64,000 nt of DNA, taken from contig JABAQJ010000002.1 in the NCBI GenBank assembly GCA_019186945.1, forward strand, positions 149,897-213,896, given 5' to 3'. The notes beneath the pieces were generated by a model. The model saw only the letters and a list, made by a program, of their open reading frames with translations. It had not been told where the DNA came from and ran no database searches. Origin of the DNA: Gemmatimonadaceae bacterium. GTDB taxonomy: Bacteria; Gemmatimonadota; Gemmatimonadetes; Gemmatimonadales; Gemmatimonadaceae. Of this stretch, positions 39,735 through 50,026 are shown in pieces. How positions within the stretch are numbered: position 1 is the first letter of the stretch; every line of letters starts with the position of its first letter. The position numbers and the translations under genes are program-made.

Positions 39735-40952
39735 TCACGGAATCGTGAGCGAACATGCAGAGCGAGTTGAGCCTATGAACTTCTCCAGCGACCATAGTTC
39801 CGGCCGAATGTCCTCATGGTAGTTCTCGTGAATCGGCTTGGGAACAACGAGAACGACCCCCGCGGCCTTCATCTGCGCGTACTGCTTAGGTGAGACTCCT
39901 TGCTGCAGCGTCAGCAAGTGCTTGGTCGGGAGCCGCTCTGCCTCGTCGATGACTTGGCGCCATCTGTCCTTGCACGTCGTTTTCACAGCAAGCATGCGTA
40001 GACGTTCTACCGGCCACTGTCCATCCTGATACGCACTCGCCGAGGGAAAGAGGAAATCCGGCCTCTTCCCATGTTCGGATTCCTCGCCGTGTGAATACGG
40101 AACGCCCTCTTCATCGAAGATGGCTCTCGCGTGCAACTCCAGCGAGGCGCCGTGCCGTGACTTGCGACGATTCAGTACCGTACTCGCCAGGTCCGTGAAC
40201 AGCTTGACTGAAGCAAACCCCTCTTTGATTCGAGGCAAGACGACGGCACTCTCAATAGAGTAGAAGATCCCGGTCTCGCAATCGTGACGTCGAATGAGTC
40301 GTTTGTCGGGAGGGTCCTCGCTGCTCGTCGGTAACCGATCGATCGCAAGCTTGACCACTGTTGCCACGTTTGGCCATGTGTAGAACCACTCGTTAGGGAT
40401 CTGCCCCGCCGTCAGCATGCACGAGGCATCACGCGGCCTCTCCTCGGCACGTTGATCCCTCGGCAGGTACACGCCAGCTCGAAAGGTTACGCCGCGACCA
40501 GGTTCCACCGGCCCGACGCGGCCGAGGATCGCCTCCTCCTCGTCCAGGTCACGGGCGATCCAAATGCGACAAAGCTCAGCATCACTGCCTTCGTGCCGAT
40601 AAAACGCGAACACAGTGAGAGCGCCGGTGTTGTCCGGATCAAGGAGCTTTGACTTGCTGCCGCCCCAGCCGGTGAAGTGGCACTCGTTTCGCGTCTTTCT
40701 GTTGTACCAGATCATCGCTGGCTTGCCCTGATCGTCGTGCGAGTCGATCAGCGCCGTGATCGTCGCGCGCGGATTCATCAGGTCCTCGCGTACGATCGAA
40801 GGAAAAACTTCGAACGCGAAAGCTTTCGGAATGTAGGGTCCTGCTTGATGTGCTTTGGTGAGGAGCGTGTCGTTGCCGGCGAGGTATTTCACGTACCACT
40901 GCCAACCGTCGTCGGACACGAGATCAATCCACTCGTCGAGCGTGTGACTCAT
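39735..40952 (-). CDS. EcoRII-family type IIE restriction endonuclease (CCWGG-specific family)
   Basis: The 405-aa protein is collinear with recalled R.EcoRII (404 aa): LAGNDT, LFPSI, GWGGSKSKLLDPDNTGALTVFAF, NRRKSRHGASLELH, and KRPDFLFPSASAYQDGQWPVERLRMLAVKTTCKDRWRQV, which is almost identical to the EcoRII catalytic region. Confidence 0.85.
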   Translation of the reverse strand: MSHTLDEWIDLVSDDGWQWYVKYLAGNDTLLTKAHQAGPYIPKAFAFEVFPSIVREDLMNPRATITALIDSHDDQGKPAMIWYNRKTRNECHFTGWGGSKSKLLDPDNTGALTVFAFYRHEGSDAELCRIWIARDLDEEEAILGRVGPVEPGRGVTFRAGVYLPRDQRAEERPRDASCMLTAGQIPNEWFYTWPNVATVVKLAIDRLPTSSEDPPDKRLIRRHDCETGIFYSIESAVVLPRIKEGFASVKLFTDLASTVLNRRKSRHGASLELHARAIFDEEGVPYSHGEESEHGKRPDFLFPSASAYQDGQWPVERLRMLAVKTTCKDRWRQVIDEAERLPTKHLLTLQQGVSPKQYAQMKAAGVVLVVPKPIHENYHEDIRPELWSLEKFIGSTRSACSLTIP

Positions 40953-41362
40953 GCTATCGCCCGGATGCGATCCGCCAGCCTTTCAAGCGCGCGTTCGTTC
41001 CCGACCTCACATTCCCAGATCGTGATCGGCTTCCACCCGAGACCGTGAAGCTGTTGATCGATTCGCCGATCACGTTTCGCGTTACCAGTGAGCTTCTCCA
41101 TCCAGAAGCTGCGATTCGAACTTGGCATATACGCGTATCTGCACCCCCGGTGTCGGTGCCAGAAGCATCCGTGCACGTGGACGACAGCGCGGTACTTCGG
41201 AAACACCAGATCGGGCTTTCCTGGCAGGTTCCTTCCGTGCAGCCGAAACCGTAGGCCACTTCGGTGAAGAAAACTGCGCACCACCAGTTCAGGCTTCGTG
41301 TTCTTGCCCCGGATCCCCGACATCATTCGACTGCGCGTCTTTCTGTCAACGATGTCAGCCAT
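40949..41362 (-). CDS. vsr: very-short-patch-repair endonuclease Vsr
   Basis: GIRGKNTKPELVVRSFLHRSGLRFRLH...PDLVFPKYRAVVHVHGCFWHRH...W are Vsr signature blocks. Its stop overlaps the restriction endonuclease start (ATGA). Confidence 0.85.
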   Translation of the reverse strand: MADIVDRKTRSRMMSGIRGKNTKPELVVRSFLHRSGLRFRLHGRNLPGKPDLVFPKYRAVVHVHGCFWHRHRGCRYAYMPSSNRSFWMEKLTGNAKRDRRIDQQLHGLGWKPITIWECEVGNERALERLADRIRAIA

Positions 41363-41375
41363 GGTGGCGTCCGAC

Positions 41376-42656
41376 TCAGGCTGTTCTCGCGACCAGAGGA
41401 AGCGTCAGCTGGTCGGCCGCAACGGGTTCTCCCAGAATGAAAGGCCGCATGGCCCTCGCAACGGCCTCAACGACTGGCACCACAACAGAATTCCCGAACT
41501 GGCGGTAGGCCTGCGTGTCCGAGACTGGAATCTGGAAGCCCGAGTGACCCGGCTTGTCGAAACCCATGAGACGAGCGCACTCGCGAGGCGTTAGGCGCCG
41601 CGGCGGTTGCCTGTGCCCGCGCTTCACCAGGATCTCTGAACCATCCTTGTGATACCGGGCGGACAATGTGCGGGCCACGTCCTCTGGCCCGAACAAGCCG
41701 AAGCCGAACCCGTTTCCGAGGCTGCGATGCTTGGCGGCATAGTCCCGGAGGTACTGCCACAGGTGATTCGTCAGCGTGTACTTCTGTGCGACCCGACCCT
41801 TGCCGTCGGTGTAGGGCGACTCCGGCAGTTCCGTGCCATCCTCAGGATGCAGGATGGACCTCAGCCGCGGTCCGACTGAGGCTTGTGGCATGTCCAGCGC
41901 GTCCCAGGAAAACCCAGTCTCGTCGCGGAAGCCAACGATGAAGATCCGCTCTCGATGCTGCGGCACGAAACCACGGGCATCGAGGACCTTCCAGGACACG
42001 TGGTACTTGAGTTCATCGGTAAGCACGGAACGGATCGTCCGAAACGTCCGGCCGCCATCGTGGCTCGCCAGGTTCTTGACGTTCTCGAGGAGGAACGCCT
42101 TCGGACGATGGTGTCGGAGAATCCGAGCGACTTCGTAGAAGAGCGTCCCCTGTGCGTCGCACGCAAAGCCGTGCGGTCGGCCAAGTGCGTTCTTCTTCGA
42201 AACGCCGGCCAAGGAGAACGGCTGGCACGGGAAGCCGGCCAGCAGGACATCATGCGCGGGAATTGTCTCCGATGCGATCGGTATGATGTCACCGGCAACC
42301 GGATGGTCGCTGGGGAAATTCGCCTTGTACGTCAGCTGCGCGTACTTGTCGCGCTCGGACGTGAACACACACTCGCCCCCGATCGACTCGAAGCCGCGCC
42401 GAAGGCCGCCAATGCCAGCGAACAGGTCAATGAACCGGAAACGGTTCCTAGCGCGATCGGTGCTCGGCAGGCGAGCAGAGGCCAGCAGCTCGAACGCCGC
42501 ACGTCTCGGTTTGGCAGCGCCCGTCTCCCATCGATGTATCGTCTTCGAGCTATACCCAACTCGTTCTGCCACTTCGCCTTGAGAGAGACCCATGCTCTCA
42601 CGAAGGGCTCGGAACTCATCGGAAGTAACGTCTCGGAGAGCGAATGATGGGGACAT
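41376..42656 (-). CDS. Dcm/M.EcoRII-type DNA (cytosine-5)-methyltransferase with an N-terminal XRE-type HTH domain
   Basis: C5-MTase motif [17 protein letters not shown], motif [10 protein letters not shown] and ENV are present. The N-terminal ~60 aa form an HTH ([23 protein letters not shown]), as in the autoregulatory N-termini of M.SsoII/M.EcoRII. The start was set at the internal ATG preceding the HTH. Confidence 0.85.
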
Positions 42657-43071
42657 TTTGTGGACATTATGTCTGCTTGCAATAACGCACAAGGCCTTCC
42701 TGGACAGCCCGTCTCGTCGCCGCTGCACCAGAATGCACCGAAAATATACCGAAGGAGGCTGATAGGCAATCGTTTCAGGAGAGGCTGCGACGGCGAGGTG
42801 GCAACGTCGCCGGCTGCCTCGGATTCATTCGTGCCGGCTTCCGTTCGCGTTCCAGCGCTCGCCGAAGGGACCGCAGCTCCTTCCGCAACGTGCGCACTAC
42901 CTCGCCGACTGACTTTGACGTTTTCCTCTTCTTGCTCATGCACCCAGCGTATCACCGACGCGCCTAACGAGGAGACGTGGACGGTTGCCGATTTCGCCAA
43001 CGGCGCATTCCGAGCCTAACGACAACAGCCGGCTTCTTCATTGTCGTGCGTCCCTGCGAGAGACTGTGAAG

Positions 43072-43410
43072 ATGCGATTCGACGACGCGCACATCACGTA
43101 CTTTGGCCGCACAACGTTCCGGAACGCCGGAGTGCCCTTTGGCATTCGTCGGTGCGACCGACGGTATCACTTCTACGCGATCGGGAAGACGGGCATGGGC
43201 AAGTCGACGCTCCTCGCGACGATGCTGCATCAGGACGTGCTTGCTGGCGAGGGCTTCGCCTTGTTCGACCCGCACGGTAACCTCGCCGACCGGGTACTCC
43301 GATTCATCCCCAGCGCACGCCGCGCGGAGCTCATCCACCTGAACGTGCCCGACCCGGACCTAAAGTGGTCCTTCAACCCATTCGCGGGTGTTGCGGCGGA
43401 CTTTGCAAAA
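43072..43410 (+). pseudogene. N-terminal fragment (~110 aa) of a HerA/TraD/VirD4-class P-loop NTPase, truncated at the tRNA gene
   Basis: Walker A YHFYAIGKTGMGKSTLL, then DPHGNL and ...LNVPDPDLKWSFNPF typical of coupling-protein/HerA-like ATPases. The reading frame then runs straight into the tRNA-Pro sequence. Confidence 0.45.
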
Positions 43411-43484
43411 TCGGGACGGCGGGATTTGAACCCGCGACCCCCTGAACCCCATTCAGGTGCGCTACCGGACTGCGCTACGTCCCG
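43411..43484 (-). tRNA. tRNA-Pro: tRNA-Pro (anticodon GGG)
   Basis: The reverse complement CGGGACGTAGCGCAGTCCGGTAGCGCACCTGAATGGGGTTCAGGGGGTCGCGGGTTCAAATCCCGCCGTCCCGA folds as a cloverleaf. It has a 7-bp acceptor stem, a GCGC D-stem, the anticodon stem-loop CCUGA-AUGGGGU-UCAGG and a GCGGG-TTCAAAT-CCCGC T-arm. It is nearly identical to recalled E. coli proL. CCA is not encoded. Confidence 0.85.
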
Positions 43485-43618
43485 TGAAACCGGTCCCGCA
43501 ACTTCCCTCCGACAAAGTTCCGAAAAGCTCCCTGCGAGAGCCAAAACCTAATCCCGACGGCCATTCACGCGCTACAGCCCCTTGCGCATCGGATGCACGC
43601 CGCCGATGTTCACCGTCA

Positions 43619-43756
43619 ATGCTTCCGACAACCCGCGCCTTCTCGTTCTACTTTAGCAGCTTCCGCGAACCCGGGAGCTGTTGTCGCGCGCGCACCTGAA
43701 GCACTGACCGCGACGATCCCCAAGCTCCCGATGCCCTCGGGAGCTTTTTCGTTTCT
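43619..43756 (+). promoter_or_regulatory. candidate ribosome-mediated attenuator: 26-aa Phe/Tyr-rich leader peptide ORF (43619..43699) plus alternative antiterminator/terminator hairpins in the leader of the DAHP synthase operon
   Basis: The leader ORF ATG CTT CCG ACA ACC CGC GCC TTC TCG TTC TAC TTT AGC AGC TTC ... TGA encodes MLPTTRAFSFYFSSFREPGSCCRART. Segment CGGGAGCT (43672-43679) is complementary to AGCTCCCG (43723-43730), the 5' arm of the terminator. Confidence 0.5.
43724..43756 (+). terminator. intrinsic terminator hairpin GCTCCCGA-TGCCC-TCGGGAGC followed by TTTTTCGTTTCT, 30 nt upstream of the DAHP synthase start
   Basis: An 8-bp perfect stem with a 5-nt loop and an immediate U-tract on the plus strand. 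No U-tract follows on the minus strand. Confidence 0.6.
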
Positions 43757-43786
43757 ACCACTCCCTCGAACGCCTCCGCGCCCCGT

Positions 43787-44692
43787 ATGCCCGACATCCA
43801 GCCCGCCTCGAACGCCTCCTGCCCGCGTGCCACCAGCCGAGAGCGCAACACCGCCGTCCGCATCACGGACTGCCTGACGATCGGCGACGGCGACCTCACG
43901 GTGATCGCCGGACCCTGCGCCGTCGAAGGGCACGCGATGCTCCTCAGGACGGCCCGCGCTGTCCAGTCGGCAGGCGCCATCATGCTCCGCGGCGGCGTAT
44001 TCAAGCCGCGAACGTCGCCCTACTCGTTCCGCGGTCTGGGCGCCGAGGCACTGGAAATGCTCGCAGCAGCCCGCGCGGAAACAGGGCTGGCAATCGTCTG
44101 CGAAGTTATGGATGCCTCCCAGCTCCCTGCCCTCATCGACGTCGTCGATGTACTCCAGATCGGTGCGCGCAACATGCAGAATTACACGCTCCTCACGGCG
44201 GCCGGCGAATGCGGGGTGCCAGTACTGCTCAAGCGCGGCATGTCGGCCACGATCGGCGAGTTCCTCCTGGCGGCAGAGTACGTGCTCGCGCACGGCAACC
44301 CCAACGTGATCCTCTGCGAACGCGGCATCCGCACGTTCGAGACGGCCACTCGCAATACGCTCGACGTTGCGGCTGTACCAGTCCTCAAAAAGGAAACGTA
44401 CCTCCCGGTTCTCGTCGATCCCAGCCATGCCGGCGGCAGGGCCGACCTCGTTCTCCCGCTATCGCTGGCGGCGGTTGCGGCTGGGGCCGACGGACTGCTG
44501 ATCGAGGTCCACCCCGATCCGGCGACGGCGCTCTCGGACGGCCCGCAGTCGCTGACCTTCGATGCATTCGACGACCTGATGGCCCGCGTCAAACCGCTCG
44601 CCTACCTCTGCGGACGCCCCGTCGCAACCGCGACGCGTGGCCAGCGCCAGCGGCGACCGCGTCGCACGGGCGCCACCGCAATGCCGGCATGA
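43787..44692 (+). CDS. 3-deoxy-D-arabino-heptulosonate-7-phosphate (DAHP) synthase, class I-beta (KDO8PS-like)
   Basis: [27 protein letters not shown] and KRG...ILCERG are the class I-beta DAHPS motifs. Confidence 0.85.
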
Positions 44693-45117
44693 CGATGACG
44701 GCCATGCCCTCCTCCTCACGACTGGCCGCCGCACGCCGACAGCCCGCGGCCACGCCACGCTTCTGCGCACTCCGCGGCGCCACGACTGTTGCCGCCGACG
44801 AAGGCCCGATGGTGGACGACGCAGTCCGTGAACTCCTCACGGCGCTCACCTGCGCGAACGGCCTTCGCCCGGACGACATCGTCAGCGCGATCTTCTCCGC
44901 CACGCCGGACATCCACAGCCTGTATCCGGCGGCAGTCGCACGCGCGCTGGGCTGGACCGACGTGCCGATGCTGTGCGTCACGGAAATGACGACCGAGGGC
45001 GCGCCCGCCCTCTGCATCCGAGTCATGTTGCACCTGACTCTTGCATCCGGACGAACGGTGCGCCCTATCTACCTTCGCGGCGCGCGCACCCTTCGCCCCG
45101 ACCTGGTGTCGCTATGA
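44689..45117 (+). CDS. aroH: AroH-class (monofunctional, B. subtilis-type) chorismate mutase
   Basis: ALRGATTVAADEGPMVDDAVRELLTALTCANGLRPDDIVSAIFSATPDIHSLYPAAVAR...CIRVMLHLTL...RPIYLRGARTLRPDL aligns block by block with recalled B. subtilis AroH (IRGIRGATTV...SATPDL...CIRVMM...LRPDL). Its ATG overlaps the upstream stop (ATGA), and its own stop overlaps the next ATG. Confidence 0.8.
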   Translation: MTMTAMPSSSRLAAARRQPAATPRFCALRGATTVAADEGPMVDDAVRELLTALTCANGLRPDDIVSAIFSATPDIHSLYPAAVARALGWTDVPMLCVTEMTTEGAPALCIRVMLHLTLASGRTVRPIYLRGARTLRPDLVSL

Positions 45118-46028
45118 CGGTAACCGCGGCCCGCGCTCGGTCCTCCGGCGTCGCCACGCGCATCGGCATCCAGGGCGAACCGGGATCGTTCAGCGAAGAA
45201 GCCGCCCACCGCGCGACCGCCGGCGCCATCGAACCGGTACCCTTTCGCGACTTCCTCGACGTGACCCGAGCCCTGGCAAGCAGGACGATCGATATCGCCG
45301 TGCTGCCGGTCGAGAACTCGCTCGCCGGAAGCGTGGTCGCCAGCTACGACGCGATACTCGCCGAGCCTGACGTCCATGCCATCGGCGAAGTGGTGATTCC
45401 GATCCGGCACTGCCTGCTCGGCGTCAAAGGTGCAACGCTCGACGATGTGGTATCGGTCGAAAGCCACCCGATGGCACTGGCGCAATGTCGCGAGTTTCTG
45501 CGCGCGCGCCCGCAGCTCGACGTTCGCGCCAGCTACGATACCGCCGGCTCGGCGCGCGACGTCGTCCGTCGCGGTGACGCAAGGCACGCGGCTATCGCCA
45601 GTGCACGCGCCGCGGAGCGCCATGGCCTCACTGTACTTGCCCGCAATGTCGAGGATCGCACGGACAACGCGACGCGGTTCCTCATCCTCTCCACCGCCGA
45701 CATGACGCCCGATCCATCGACGCGCGTCAGGACGATTGCGGTCTACACCACGGCAAACGTCCCGGGAGCGCTCCTGCGGACGTTGGAGCCCCTGCACGCG
45801 AGGCACATGAACATGGTCGCACTCCAGGCGCGGCCAGCCGGAACGCCATGGTCATATCGCTTCATCGTGGAGTTCGAGCATACCGGCGGCCTCGGCGCGG
45901 CATCCGACGCGCTGGAGGAAATGTCGGCACACACGGAGACGCTCCATCGCATCGGCACGTTCGCGCCCCAGTCGTTCCATACGTCGAGTCGAGTGTCGGA
46001 ACCGGCACTCACTGTCAATCAGGTATAG
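45114..46028 (+). CDS. pheA: prephenate dehydratase (PDT domain plus C-terminal ACT domain)
   Basis: RIGIQGEPGSFSEEAA starts the PDT domain, and the C-terminal 80 aa are ACT-like. The start was placed at the internal ATG (MTVTAARAR...), since the track ORF carries a spurious N-extension. Confidence 0.85.
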   Translation: MTVTAARARSSGVATRIGIQGEPGSFSEEAAHRATAGAIEPVPFRDFLDVTRALASRTIDIAVLPVENSLAGSVVASYDAILAEPDVHAIGEVVIPIRHCLLGVKGATLDDVVSVESHPMALAQCREFLRARPQLDVRASYDTAGSARDVVRRGDARHAAIASARAAERHGLTVLARNVEDRTDNATRFLILSTADMTPDPSTRVRTIAVYTTANVPGALLRTLEPLHARHMNMVALQARPAGTPWSYRFIVEFEHTGGLGAASDALEEMSAHTETLHRIGTFAPQSFHTSSRVSEPALTVNQV

Positions 46029-46142
46029 CGATCTCCAGCGTCCGATCCCAGTGCCGCCTGAGGCCCTTCGAAGGGGGTTCGGCAAGCGCCAGCAGCTGTT
46101 GCGCGGCGCCTGCGCGGATTACGCCGTGGTGCCCGGCGCGCT

Positions 46143-46493
46143 TCAGACGCGCTGCCGTTGCCCGCGCATCCGATCGACGAGCCAGACGACGAGGAACACC
46201 GGCAGTGCGATGAACAGGGCGAGCTTGAGTGCCGCCAGTCCCAGTCCAACGAGTGCGCCTAGCAAGCCGAAGACCACCCCGAGCACCACGCAGACCAACA
46301 CCACCACCACGAAGATCGGGAACCCGATCAGGAACAGGACGCCCAGGACGGGAAGCGCTACCACTCCGAGGACGGCGACGATCGGCAAACCGATCAACGC
46401 CAGGATTCCGGCCGCCGGCAGCAGAACGAACATCGCCAGCAGCGCGAAAAACAGGAACTTGATCAGCGACATGAGCGTCTCCGGGTTGGTCAC
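46143..46493 (-). CDS. small multi-pass hydrophobic membrane protein (hypothetical; possibly a LrgA/holin-like target of the upstream LytTR regulator)
   Basis: A 116-aa ORF made almost entirely of Leu/Val/Ala/Gly/Phe with 3-4 predicted helices. It lies downstream of the LytTR regulator on the same strand. Confidence 0.4.
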   Translation of the reverse strand: MTNPETLMSLIKFLFFALLAMFVLLPAAGILALIGLPIVAVLGVVALPVLGVLFLIGFPIFVVVVLVCVVLGVVFGLLGALVGLGLAALKLALFIALPVFLVVWLVDRMRGQRQRV

Positions 46494-46628
46494 GATCGAG
46501 CGAGCGATGCGCGGAAGGTAACTACGGACCCTCTGCCATGCGGTTTCGCCCGGGTCCGGAGGCCAGCCGACGCCACGCCGAGCGCCGGTGCATCGGACCG
46601 GCGCCCGGGGCAGGACGCGTTCGAATAG

Positions 46629-47471
46629 TTACGGCATCCGGTGCATCCGCTGCTGAAGAGCTTCGCGATACGTGCGCGAGAGCTTCAGCTGGCGTCCGTC
46701 ACGGAGGATGACGATGTAGTCGCCGGCAAACCACGGTTGCAGCTCACGAATACGGTCCAGGTTCACGATCACGGCTCGGTGAATGCGCGCGAACTCGTTG
46801 GGGTCGAGCTGTGCCTCGATCCCGTGCATCGTCTCGCGAATGAGGTGCGAGGCGCGTCCGACGTATACCCGTACGTAGTTGCCCGAGGCCTCGAACCAGT
46901 CGACATCGGAGACCTTCACGAAGAACACGCGTCCGTCGTGCTTCACCATCAGGCGATCGAGAAAGCGCACGCGCGCTGGCGTCGCTGCGGCCGCGACAGC
47001 GCCGGCGCCATTACCGCTGGAGTTCGCGGCCAGGACTGCACCAGCTTTCGCGCCACCCAGCACCTGCTCGAGGAGCGCCGTGATCTTGCGGCCGGCATCG
47101 GCGCTGCTCACCTGCTCCAGATGCGATCTGGCGCGGAGGAACGCGGCCCTGAACCGTTCGGGGTCGAACGGCTTGAGCAGGTAATCCATGGCATGGACAT
47201 CGAAGGCACGCACCGCGTATTCGTCGTACGCCGTGACGAACACGATCGCCGGAAGACGCTCATCGCCTAACGCGGCGACTACGCCGAACCCGTCCAGGTC
47301 CGGCATCTGCACGTCGAGGAACACCAGGTCGGGCCGATGTTCCCTGATCGCGGCCACCGCTTCGCTGCCGCTGGAGCATTCTCCCACCACCTCGACGTCT
47401 TCCTCCATGCGCAGCAGTCGACGCACACGACGACGCGCGATCGGCTCATCGTCTACGATCAACACTTTCAT
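46629..47471 (-). CDS. LytR/AlgR-family response regulator (REC plus LytTR DNA-binding domain)
   Basis: MKVLIVDDEP...D (receiver) and a C-terminal LytTR (FFVKVSDVDWFEASGNYVRVY...RIHRAVIVNL). A GGAGGAG Shine-Dalgarno precedes the ATG at 47471. The 698-aa track ORF is an artefactual upstream extension overlapping the kinase gene. Confidence 0.85.
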   Translation of the reverse strand: MKVLIVDDEPIARRRVRRLLRMEEDVEVVGECSSGSEAVAAIREHRPDLVFLDVQMPDLDGFGVVAALGDERLPAIVFVTAYDEYAVRAFDVHAMDYLLKPFDPERFRAAFLRARSHLEQVSSADAGRKITALLEQVLGGAKAGAVLAANSSGNGAGAVAAAATPARVRFLDRLMVKHDGRVFFVKVSDVDWFEASGNYVRVYVGRASHLIRETMHGIEAQLDPNEFARIHRAVIVNLDRIRELQPWFAGDYIVILRDGRQLKLSRTYREALQQRMHRMP

Positions 47472-47497
47472 GGTCACAGGCTCCTCCTGGAGAACGG

Positions 47498-50026
47498 TCA
47501 GGCGGCTGCTGCCGCCACGAGTGGGGGTCCGGGCTGGCGGTCGGACGGTGGATCGGCGACGACGACGACCGCCGTCGACCGATCCGGAAACGTGACTGAA
47601 ACGAGTGGGCCGGCATCGGCGATGGCCGCTTCCGCCACGCTCTTCTTGCGCCACCAGGCATGCCTCCCACTCGAGACATCCTGCCAGGCGGCATCCCCAC
47701 GTATCCGTATGCGGGTGGCCGACGCGACGCGCTCGGCAGCCACGGAAATCGCAAGGCGCGCCTCCGGATCCGCCGTTTCGCCAGCGAGAAGGTCGTCGAC
47801 CATCGTGCAGACGAGGCGACTGGGGATTACGCTCGTCATCGAGGGTCCGTCCACCTCGACATCGAGGGCGAGATTGGGACGGATACCGATCTGGTGCGCT
47901 TCCACGCAAGCCGTCAGAAGTTGCAGCTCCGACCGCAGCGTCGTTGTTCGGTCGCGGGCGGCGTCGAGAGTACGGCGCAACACGTCGGCCAGCCGCGCGA
48001 TCAGGCGTTCCGCACGACCGACATCCCGGTGAACCAGATGCGCAAGCAGTTCCAACGTTCCGAGCAGGAACTGCGGGCGAAGCTGTACGCAGAGCGCCCG
48101 GAACCGCGAACTGGCTATCTCCGACGTCAGGCGGGCCGCCGCGACCTCGCGCGCCCGGTACCAGGCGCTGAAATCGCGCGAGTTCATCCACGCTACCAGC
48201 ATGATGTACACGAACAGATTGCCGGTGAGCGGATTGATGTTGAACGGAACGAGAATCGGCGACTGCGACAGGTCGAGGAGATTCGTCACCTCGAGATGGC
48301 CGAACGAAAGCACCACTGCGACACCAATGTGAATCGCCAGTGGTCCAACCCAGCGATTCGGCCGGATGCGAACCGCTCGCGACAGCCACAACACCAGGGG
48401 CGTCACCGCAATCCAGTACAACGACGCAACGCTCTGGAGCTTGAGCAGGTCGATCGAGAACGGCTTCCATGCCATGCCCCGGAAGGCTGCGTATACCTGC
48501 ATCTGCACCGTCCACAACAGCGCCATCAGCAGCCACAGCATGACGACGCCGATGAGGACCCGAGGGCCGAACCGGGACGGCGGCAGCGGAACGCTGGCGA
48601 CGCTCGCGGCTCCCGACCCGGCGACCGGCCTGCTGCCGGTGCACTCGTCCGCCGCCGAATCTTCCTGTGTGCTCTTCGCTGGGAGCGACACGAACTGCCC
48701 GACACTGAACTCGCCGGTCCGCCACGAATCGACATCCAGAGGATCGGAGTCCGGCGGCATATCCGGGCGAACCGCGTCGGAACTGCCGGGCAGCCGATCG
48801 TCGACCGCTGCCTTGCGATAGGGGATGTTGATCTCGACGACAGTCCCACCACCCTCCGCTTCGCGCAGCACGAGGCTCTGGTCAGCCCCGTAGAGCTGAC
48901 GGAGTCGGTCGCCGGTATTGGGCAACCCGATGCCAGTCGGGCGGCCACCTGACGACGCCGCGACTCCCACGCCGTTGTCCTGGACTTCGAGCTGGAGCCT
49001 GTTCCGCATCCGTCGGGCCCGTATCACGATGTGCCCAGAGCCAGCGCGCACCGCAAGACCGTGACGAATCGAGTTTTCGACAAGCGGCTGCAGGATCAGG
49101 TGCGGTACGAGCGCATCGCGCGCATCTTCGTCACACTGTATTGCGACGGTCAGCCAGTCGCTGAAACGCGTGCGCTGAATGTCGATGTATGGCTGAAGCG
49201 AGGACAACTCGTCGAGGAGCGGCACTTCATCGCGACCGCCGCGCGCCAGCGAAAGCCCCAGCAGCGTGCGCAGCTTGTTCAGCATTCGTTCGGCAGCGGC
49301 CGGCGCTTCGTGGGCCAACTCCTGGATCGCATTCAGCGAATTGAACAGAAAGTGCGGTTGAAGCTGGATTTCCAGGTAGTGCAGCTGCGCACGCGCCAGC
49401 TGCGTCTCCAGCACGTGCGCACGAAGAGCACGGTCCAGGTAGCGCCGGAAACCATCGGCTGCCCGGCCAATCATGACGATCGCCAGATAGGTAAAGAGAT
49501 TCACGTCAGACCAGAAGACAACCAGCTCACCAAAGGACGACACGCTCGGGAAGGCCGTACCCCACATCCAGGCGGTGACACGCAGCCGCAACGCGGTCGT
49601 TCCGATCGCCACGAGCGCGCACGCCAGAGAATGCACGGCGAGCGATGTCCGCCAACCCACTCGCGACGGTAACGCGGCTCTCGTCAGGCGGTACACCAGC
49701 GGCGTCAGAAGCGCCCAACCCCACGCGACGACCATTGCCGCCGGAATCAGCGTCCGCCACATCGCGTAACCGTCGTTCTCCGTCGCCATCCACATCAGGG
49801 CATGGATGCATCCGAAGACGGTCCATGCGCCGGCAACCAGCGCGGTAGTTCGAACGGATCGGGACGAGAGCCGACGGACACTCACGGCAGTCTGGGCGAC
49901 GGTCTCACGCACGGCCTGCACCGCCCGCAGACCGACAACTCGCCACCCGGGTCGTCGATGCAAGATGGCACGTCCGGAAATCACACACTTCGTGACCGAT
50001 GATCGCCAGATCGCGGCTACAGCCAC
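47498..50026 (-). CDS. tandem double LytS/YehU-type sensor histidine kinase (module 1 intact; module 2 degenerate, pseudokinase-like)
   Basis: Module 1 has membrane helices, then LHYLEIQLQPHFLFNSLNAIQEL (PF06580 H-region), the N box QPLVENSIRHG, DNGVGV and GIGLPN. Module 2 (about aa 480-842) repeats the architecture but reads LCVQLRPQFLLGTLELLAHL (His replaced by Gln) and lacks the N and G boxes. It is one uninterrupted 842-aa frame. Confidence 0.75.
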   Translation of the reverse strand: MAVAAIWRSSVTKCVISGRAILHRRPGWRVVGLRAVQAVRETVAQTAVSVRRLSSRSVRTTALVAGAWTVFGCIHALMWMATENDGYAMWRTLIPAAMVVAWGWALLTPLVYRLTRAALPSRVGWRTSLAVHSLACALVAIGTTALRLRVTAWMWGTAFPSVSSFGELVVFWSDVNLFTYLAIVMIGRAADGFRRYLDRALRAHVLETQLARAQLHYLEIQLQPHFLFNSLNAIQELAHEAPAAAERMLNKLRTLLGLSLARGGRDEVPLLDELSSLQPYIDIQRTRFSDWLTVAIQCDEDARDALVPHLILQPLVENSIRHGLAVRAGSGHIVIRARRMRNRLQLEVQDNGVGVAASSGGRPTGIGLPNTGDRLRQLYGADQSLVLREAEGGGTVVEINIPYRKAAVDDRLPGSSDAVRPDMPPDSDPLDVDSWRTGEFSVGQFVSLPAKSTQEDSAADECTGSRPVAGSGAASVASVPLPPSRFGPRVLIGVVMLWLLMALLWTVQMQVYAAFRGMAWKPFSIDLLKLQSVASLYWIAVTPLVLWLSRAVRIRPNRWVGPLAIHIGVAVVLSFGHLEVTNLLDLSQSPILVPFNINPLTGNLFVYIMLVAWMNSRDFSAWYRAREVAAARLTSEIASSRFRALCVQLRPQFLLGTLELLAHLVHRDVGRAERLIARLADVLRRTLDAARDRTTTLRSELQLLTACVEAHQIGIRPNLALDVEVDGPSMTSVIPSRLVCTMVDDLLAGETADPEARLAISVAAERVASATRIRIRGDAAWQDVSSGRHAWWRKKSVAEAAIADAGPLVSVTFPDRSTAVVVVADPPSDRQPGPPLVAAAAA

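Follow-up and report, generated by a model that had tools for sequence, protein, structure and literature searches.

The window analysed here is a 64,000-nucleotide (nt) stretch of DNA from a Gemmatimonadaceae bacterium (assembly GCA_019186945.1, contig JABAQJ010000002.1, positions 149,897 to 213,896 of the forward strand). Positions 43485-43786 of this window lie upstream of a DAHP synthase/chorismate mutase/prephenate dehydratase operon, and very probably contain a ribosome-mediated (leader-peptide) transcription attenuator of this operon. The evidence consists of the sequence elements of the leader, their alternative pairings, the conservation and partial covariation of these pairings, and the match between the aromatic codons of the leader and the gene that it precedes.

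The leader and its competing structures

The elements of the leader and the genes of the operon, all on the plus strand, are as follows.

43582..43587, plus strand: putative −35 hexamer TTGCGC, positionally conserved in the family
43605..43610, plus strand: putative −10 hexamer GATGTT, 17 nt after the −35 hexamer and 8 nt before the ATG
43619..43699, plus strand: leader peptide open reading frame (ORF) of 26 codons, MLPTTRAFSFYFSSFREPGSCCRART followed by the stop codon
43640..43663, plus strand: regulatory codon run F8, F10, Y11, F12, F15
43654..43665, plus strand: segment 1, overlapping codons F12-R16; it supplies the 1:2 (anti-antiterminator) hairpin with its 5' arm
43672..43688, plus strand: segment 2, with the core CGGGAGCU at 43672-43679; its partner is segment 1 or segment 3
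43709..43731, plus strand: segment 3, which serves the antiterminator as its 3' arm and the terminator as its 5' arm, with the core AGCUCCCG at 43723-43730
43722..43756, plus strand: intrinsic terminator with a 10-bp stem (43722-43731/43737-43746), the loop UGCCC and a T-rich tail to 43756
43787..44692, plus strand: DAHP synthase, 301 amino acids (PF00793, E = 1.4e-79)
44689..45117, plus strand: AroH-type chorismate mutase, 142 amino acids (PF07736, E = 3.8e-36)
45114..46028, plus strand: prephenate dehydratase (PF00800, E = 2e-57)

The run in the leader ORF consists of four Phe codons and one Tyr codon inside eight codons. An ATG ORF with at least five aromatic codons in eight is obtained with P = 0.0004 in 5000 dinucleotide shuffles of 43485-43786, and in the whole 64-kb window, whose two strands carry 373 short ATG ORFs (12-60 codons), none of these other than the leader ORF has such a run. 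No further copy of the attenuator is found in the window, either by pattern search or with the covariance model R1 described below. An earlier interpretation of this DNA (the sequence-only reading) had described the same 26-codon ORF with four Phe codons and one Tyr codon in eight, and its coordinates and translation agree with ours. It had also called the element a Phe attenuator. The element is Phe-biased, but its run mixes Phe and Tyr, and it is a member of an aromatic family.

The terminator has the stem AAGCUCCCGA/UCGGGAGCUU and the tail UUUCGUUUCU, and is the sole terminator-like site in 42500-47500. The T-run stops 30 nt short of the ATG at 43787. This distance and the 5-nt loop are as had been reported in the sequence-only reading, but the stem has 10 bp and not 8 bp. 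The proposal made there that a segment of the leader is complementary to the 5' arm of the terminator holds, because CGGGAGCU (43672-43679) can pair over 8 bp, without a mismatch, with AGCUCCCG (43723-43730). An additional 12-bp hairpin, which had been missed, is formed by 43654-43665 with 43672-43683. This 1:2 hairpin contains F15 and touches F12. Segment 2 is common to the 1:2 hairpin and to the pairing with the terminator arm, and therefore the layout of 1:2, 2:3 and 3:4 pairings is complete. The stop codon of the leader falls after segment 2.

The minimum-energy fold of 43600-43760 has an energy of −58.1 kcal/mol (z = −4.4 versus shuffles) and holds the terminator and the 1:2 hairpin. The energy is −17.1 kcal/mol for the 1:2 hairpin, −16.4 kcal/mol for the terminator, and −27.9 kcal/mol for the antiterminator (43672-43688 with 43709-43730), when segment 1 is masked and the RNA ends before segment 4. 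Comparison of the energies of the alternative structures had been suggested earlier as a check of the element. Both structures fold, and once segment 4 has emerged, their energies are near-equal (−32.2 kcal/mol for the antiterminator state and −33.7 kcal/mol for the terminator state). The two final states are almost isoenergetic, and are therefore fit for a kinetically decided attenuator.

In the proposed mechanism, expression of the operon would depend mainly on how much charged tRNA-Phe is available, and less strongly on charged tRNA-Tyr. The RNA would start at approximately 43617-43619 from the promoter at 43582-43610, at the leader AUG or no more than 2 nt from it, and its translation would be leaderless. 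When Phe and Tyr are ample, the ribosome would pass the aromatic codons and proceed to the stop codon at 43697, and segment 1 would pair with segment 2 behind it. Segment 3 would then be free for segment 4, so that the terminator would form and transcription would halt before 43787. Under a shortage of charged tRNA-Phe or tRNA-Tyr, the ribosome would stall on F10-F15 and cover segment 1. The free segment 2 would pair with segment 3 once this segment is made (43672-43688 with 43709-43730), the terminator would be blocked, and the operon would be read. The transcription start, the translation of the ORF, the stalling of the ribosome and the response to the amino acids are predictions made from the sequence.

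Conservation and codon content of the leader family

Homologous loci were picked by the DAHP synthase protein alone (65-77% identity), and ten of them, the window included, have readable upstream DNA. The sequence-only reading had named homologues without the Phe codons or the complementary segments as evidence that would count against it. The leader architecture is kept in nine of the ten loci (the window, L038, L040, L041, L043, L045, L047, L168 and L171), and all nine have a short ORF with an aromatic run, for example VKTIGRATYFYYFSFPGSGSCRRARI, MINLGRTSAFYFGSYRITGSRRSARM, MANLACAAVFFFSSFWSSGSDRRAHI and MQIARAAAFFFYFSYRTPGSYRRVRIAE, followed by a terminator. The CCGGGRGC core and the GCUCCCG..CGGGRGC terminator are found in seven of the ten loci (the window, L038, L040, L041, L043, L045 and L047), and L168 and L171 carry variants of the CCGGGRGC segments and of the terminator segments. 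The terminator of L171 has GCCCCCG as segment 3 and CGGGGGC as segment 4. The leader moves together with the operon, because the upstream neighbours differ at all such loci. The tenth locus, L169, is considered below. None of the more distant DAHP synthase relatives (45-58% identity; Chloroflexota, Acidobacteria, Omnitrophota and others) has the leader.

L168 is from a Longimicrobium metagenome-assembled genome (MAG; GCA_036280135.1), and the named cluster members elsewhere are assigned to Gemmatimonadales, Gemmatimonadaceae or Gemmatimonadota. The family therefore appears to be phylum-wide. At L168, two tandem attenuators (1006-1149 and 1307-1455) precede a pair of genes for a DAHP synthase with a ferredoxin-like (FXD) domain and a type II chorismate mutase. 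Both leaders are Tyr-rich (MSICARTGYRGYRYYG... and MSIHARASYYRGYRYYR...). The second, at least, has its own promoter-like site, and on transcripts that begin at the first promoter its ORF would lie in the interior.

A metagenome collection was scanned with the pattern CCGGGRGC-N35-65-GCTCCCG-N4-12-CGGGRGC-NN-TTT, which specifies segments 2, 3 and 4 only, and neither codons nor a gene. At least 120 loci match this pattern. Approximately 110 of the matches listed are family members, and approximately 100 of the matches listed have an aromatic-rich short ORF ending between segments 2 and 3. Wherever the first gene is identifiable among the matches listed, it always encodes an aromatic-pathway enzyme: DAHP synthase (with or without FXD), prephenate dehydratase, type II chorismate mutase (PF01817) or phenylalanine-4-hydroxylase (PF00351), the last label being the annotation of a biopterin-dependent hydroxylase. 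The covariance model R1 was built from 51 cluster representatives. Among the pattern-scan matches listed, true members score 49.6-122 bits with this model, and six chance matches score 37 bits or less. R1 finds nothing at 32 DAHP synthase loci of other phyla, which served as negative controls. The window matches R1 at 43619-43754 with 94.4 bits (E = 3.9e-21, model positions 1-147), partly by construction, because the window is among the 51 training sequences. The independent members L168 and L171 score 46-55 bits.

The codon content of the leaders was compared with the first gene downstream in 99 non-redundant leaders. The mean codon counts per leader are as follows.

Prephenate dehydratase first (n = 13): Phe 4.5, Tyr 0.3, Trp 0.1; 12 of 13 with at least three Phe and at most one Tyr
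Phenylalanine hydroxylase first (n = 8): Phe 0, Tyr 3.0; 8 of 8 with at least two Tyr and no Phe
Type II chorismate mutase first (n = 12): Phe 2.9, Tyr 1.3, Trp 0; Trp in none
DAHP synthase first (n = 58): Phe 2.1, Tyr 3.0, Trp 0.9; Trp in 50 of 58

The codon mix tracks the enzyme, as would be the case if every leader responded to the end products of its own step. The window leader (Phe 4, Tyr 1, Trp 0) lies at the Phe-biased end of the family. TTT and TTC, and likewise TAT and TAC, swap freely between homologues, with the amino acids kept. The conserved CCGGGAGC is read as PRER, and not as PGS (the other frame), in most of the chorismate-mutase group. This frame-shifted reading indicates that the conserved peptide tail reflects RNA constraints, and not a function of the peptide. 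As regards codon usage, 61% of the Phe codons in the leader runs of L038-L167 are TTT (147 TTT versus 94 TTC), and the three structural genes of the window have 2 TTT versus 15 TTC, in a comparison that spans different genomes and is uncontrolled. The use of TTT as a rare codon could sharpen the ribosome stall.

Tyr-only leaders, such as MTHTLRTASYYRSYW..., precede PF00351 genes at L080, L082, L092, L098, L111, L143, L146 and other loci. A Tyr-only leader on a phenylalanine hydroxylase gene implies that this gene is induced by tyrosine starvation, and suggests that the enzyme has a biosynthetic rather than a catabolic role. The attenuated operon of L171 includes prephenate dehydrogenase, and hence both routes to Tyr are present in the phylum. 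The balance tips slightly toward the view that copies of one homologous leaderless scaffold, with re-coded runs, have come to serve the aromatic pathway across the whole phylum. If this is true, much of the aromatic amino-acid synthesis of Gemmatimonadota is under one RNA design, and phenylalanine hydroxylase, switched on by Tyr starvation, provides a biosynthetic route to tyrosine.

The family also indicates where transcription would start. The motif TTG-N3, a 16-19 nt spacer and NANNNT ending 6-9 nt before the start codon is present in 35 of the 51 representatives and in 70 of the 99 non-redundant leaders. At other offsets, it is present in at most three representatives (11-12 nt, hydroxylase group), and otherwise in zero or one; in the hydroxylase group the −10 hexamer lies 11-12 nt from the start codon. 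The hexamers vary by lineage (TTGACA or TTGCGC at −35; TAAGGT, CATGAT, GATCTT or TAGACT at −10), and the start codon is AUG or GUG. The promoter of the window is proposed because of this positional conservation across the family, and not because of its own hexamers. No Shine-Dalgarno sequence is present before the leader ATG of the window, and the promoter geometry leaves no room for one, so that the transcript start is predicted at approximately 43617-43619. To judge from this geometry, the leader is probably translated leaderless or nearly so. A start at this position gives a leader of approximately 170 nt. The 300-nt leader of the sequence-only reading is therefore unsupported: a divergent tRNA-Pro gene (43411-43484) adjoins this region, and the first 100 nt of 43485-43786 are for this reason an intergenic spacer and not necessarily part of the leader transcript.

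The pairings were counted on alignment A1, and helix 1:2 is not included in the search pattern. In helix 1:2 (columns 57-69 with 86-98), pairing reaches 79%, as compared with 40-54% for slid partners. The column pair 58:97 is AU in 11 sequences, UA in 9, UG in 7, GC in 4 and CG in 3; 60:95 is CG in 31 and UA in 9; and 61:94 is AU in 25, CG in 7 and GC in 3. The core of segment 2 finds an upstream partner in 96% of the representatives, versus 50% when the upstream part is shuffled, and the median energy of the 1:2 hairpin is −14.2 kcal/mol, versus −9.7 kcal/mol in the upstream shuffles. Helix 1:2 is supported by the double-sided changes at the three column pairs and by the slid-partner and shuffle controls. 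In 85 of 93 leaders, the upstream partner of segment 2 shares nucleotides with between one and three aromatic codons. The terminator is present in nearly all family members, and its pairs outside the fixed core covary (159:184, GC 22 versus AU 20; 167:176, AU 38 versus GC 9). Compensatory changes in the stems, which had been proposed earlier as a check, are found in helix 1:2 and in the flanks of the terminator, but the antiterminator core is too invariant to reveal them. An outer helix (columns 31-35 with 102-106) is only 64% paired and is not claimed.

Several observations weigh against the attenuator or against parts of its evidence. Within the sample, segments 2, 3 and 4 show almost no variation in their cores, which the pattern fixes in the scan set. 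The antiterminator therefore rests on conserved complementarity and not on covariation, and its extension past the 7-8 bp core is no better than that obtained with shuffled spacers (median z = −0.68). RNAalifold recovers only the terminator from a MAFFT alignment, and for this reason helix 1:2 was specified by hand and then tested with the controls. The sequences share descent, so that the shuffle statistics overstate their independence. The promoter hexamers of the window are weak (3/6 each), and a consensus promoter scan of 42500-47500 does not call a sigma-70-type site. A stall at F15, the last of the Phe codons, would bring the ribosome onto the first 2-3 nt of segment 2. Finally, L169 (1381-1483), where the DAHP synthase has FXD, keeps a TTGACA-17-CATCCT-7-ATG site and the family terminator hairpin, and lacks the aromatic codon run and segments 1 and 2. 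L169 could carry an attenuator that has decayed, or else a 5' hairpin under some other kind of control.

Alternative explanations and the surrounding locus

One improbable alternative is that the leader senses aromatic compounds without translation, as a riboswitch-like, protein-binding or tRNA-binding RNA (T-box, TRAP-like or another factor), and that the ORF is incidental. The most conserved nucleotides are the structural ones of segments 2, 3 and 4, no Shine-Dalgarno sequence precedes the ORF, and conservation across two reading frames indicates selection on the RNA itself, all of which would suit such a leader. However, the identity of the in-frame aromatic codons is the sole part of the leader that varies systematically with the regulated gene, and synonymous TTT/TTC and TAT/TAC codons alternate while the amino acids are kept. 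In addition, the in-frame start lies at a fixed distance from the −10 hexamer, the in-frame stop is always located between segments 2 and 3, and no conserved unpaired core resembling a ligand pocket is present beyond the helices. Known families also argue against this alternative: a cmscan search of 42500-44500 with all 4227 families of Rfam 15 (E ≤ 10) finds tRNA only, and neither Phe_leader nor T-box, and a search of seven other family members against Rfam 15 (E ≤ 1) finds nothing, T-box included.

There is similarly little probability that translation of the leader reports general translation capacity or ribosome availability, and not the supply of Phe and Tyr. The three-segment geometry would react to any stall or failed initiation, and leaderless initiation is sensitive to global physiology, which also counts in favour of a general sensor. 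Such a sensor, however, would not need an aromatic run, nor would this run be re-coded according to the enzyme (Phe, Tyr, Phe+Tyr, Phe+Tyr+Trp).

It is very doubtful that the small ORF encodes a functional micro-peptide with the tail G-S-x-R-R-A-R, which would regulate by itself and not through the position of the ribosome. Many members have a GSCRRAR-like C-terminal half, but the same nucleotides give PRERRARAC in the other frame in most of the chorismate-mutase group, and the nucleotides of the tail make up segment 2 together with the GC-rich stretch that follows. Least likely of all is a chance ORF next to a hairpin that is a plain terminator or insulator between tRNA-Pro and the operon, or the end of an upstream transcript: long spurious ORFs are common in a high-GC genome and the promoter match of the window is weak, but the run has P = 0.0004, the tRNA gene is on the opposite strand, and the architecture is kept in approximately 110 loci among the matches listed with unrelated upstream neighbours, a comparison by which this explanation is effectively refuted. 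Ribosome-stalling attenuation, as had been proposed in the sequence-only reading, is the explanation to which the homologous loci, the leaders found by pattern and the match between codons and gene point.

The three genes downstream of the attenuator are chained by ATGA overlaps at 44689-44692 and 45114-45117. Both overlaps had been claimed in the sequence-only reading, and the domains match the identities given there to all three proteins. The operon consists of three genes, because a convergent minus-strand ORF comes next after the prephenate dehydratase gene. The ACT domain (PF01842) of prephenate dehydratase is weak (21.1 bits versus the Pfam cut-off of 27). Among the operons sampled, the gene order DAHP synthase, AroH, prephenate dehydratase is found in the window only, and this gene set is purely Phe-directed. 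The DAHP synthase is 100% identical to a protein of a Gemmatimonadaceae MAG (GCA_021463025.1, contig JAJTYF010000022.1). The N-terminal regulatory domains of related DAHP synthases are thought to confer feedback inhibition. The FXD domain is not matched in the DAHP synthase of the window in a Pfam domain search, and therefore attenuation may be the main control, substituting for feedback. A recognisable Shine-Dalgarno sequence is absent at its start, 43787 (CCTCCGCGCCCCGTATG), and clear ones are present at several homologous loci, for example GAGGAGAATTTCCATG at L038; either this start is mis-set or initiation is atypical.

The genes on the other side of the leader are as follows.

43411-43484, minus strand: tRNA-Pro(GGG) gene, divergent from the operon
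42985-43410: truncated ORF with weak matches to DUF87 and TrwB (type IV secretion coupling protein)
41376-42728, minus strand: C5 cytosine methylase with a helix-turn-helix domain
39735-40952, minus strand: EcoRII-type endonuclease

Several mobile-element-like genes lie on the 3' side of the tRNA-Pro gene (window 39735-43484), and this region resembles what is left of a mobile island that had inserted at the tRNA gene, with a restriction-modification system. On the far side of the operon and convergent with it, a response regulator of the LytTR type (PF00072 and PF04397) is encoded on the minus strand at 46629-50026, together with a histidine kinase. No link is seen between this regulator/kinase pair and the attenuator.

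Relation to known attenuators

The pheL-pheA and pheM-pheST attenuators of Escherichia coli (Rfam Phe_leader; PMC3082878, PMC11802643) are similar to the Gemmatimonadota leaders in having a run of Phe codons in a short ORF, 1:2, 2:3 and 3:4 pairings and an intrinsic terminator, and in the control of prephenate dehydratase. They differ in that there is no homology of sequence or structure (no Rfam match at E ≤ 10), and in that the stop codon of the Gemmatimonadota leaders is located after segment 2 and not before it, a difference that also holds for the E. coli trp leader. In addition, the first gene in the window is that of DAHP synthase.

The sequence-only reading had suggested that attenuation of such an operon may be undescribed. 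For Gemmatimonadota, literature searches yielded no paper on attenuators, nor on a Tyr leader upstream of phenylalanine hydroxylase, but there is a precedent for the attenuation of DAHP synthase. According to PMC11802643 and PMC4046766 (Neshat et al. 2014), the leader peptide aroR of Corynebacterium glutamicum (F-Y-F) attenuates aroF, which encodes DAHP synthase, and read-through is reported to rise under Phe limitation. Compared by description only, aroR and the window share a leader-peptide attenuator before a DAHP synthase gene and a mixed Phe/Tyr motif. They differ in that aroR is a single locus of Actinomycetota, whereas the Gemmatimonadota leaders form a re-coded multi-gene family with 3-7 aromatic codons, Trp frequently among them. 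For the Phe and Tyr operons of Actinobacteria, a survey from 2005 reported no RNA elements (PMC1262725).

Leader peptides without a ribosome-binding site have precedents as well. Corynebacterial leader peptides, such as that of C. glutamicum ilvB, can lack this site (Morbach 2000, as cited in PMC4046766). Fourteen leaderless leader peptides have been predicted in Deinococcus deserti (PMC4007540), and polycysteine leaderless upstream ORFs are reported to attenuate operonic gene expression in mycobacteria (bioRxiv 10.1101/834739). The predicted Gemmatimonadota transcripts resemble those of Deinococcus and mycobacteria in that a short ORF (AUG or GUG) lies at the 5' end without a Shine-Dalgarno sequence, and its codons match the amino acid of the downstream pathway. 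They differ in phylum and pathway, and in that the start was mapped experimentally in those systems, whereas it is deduced from promoter geometry here.

The mechanism is probably of a known kind, and what appears to be new is the family, which is apparently phylum-wide and leaderless, re-coded along the aromatic pathway, and absent from Rfam. The attenuator cleanly extends the list of known attenuators and introduces no new principle. As judged from Rfam 15 and the literature searched, it would represent the first regulatory RNA family found for Gemmatimonadota, an abundant and barely studied soil phylum, and R1 is usable for annotating aromatic leaders in MAGs. The family is a natural experiment, in which one scaffold carries four codon sets, each fitted to a step of the pathway; this supports the stalling model and provides ready specificity variants. 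Gemmatimonadota would be the third lineage with leaderless leader peptides after Actinomycetota and Deinococcota, which suggests that the combination of leaderless initiation and attenuation may be widespread.

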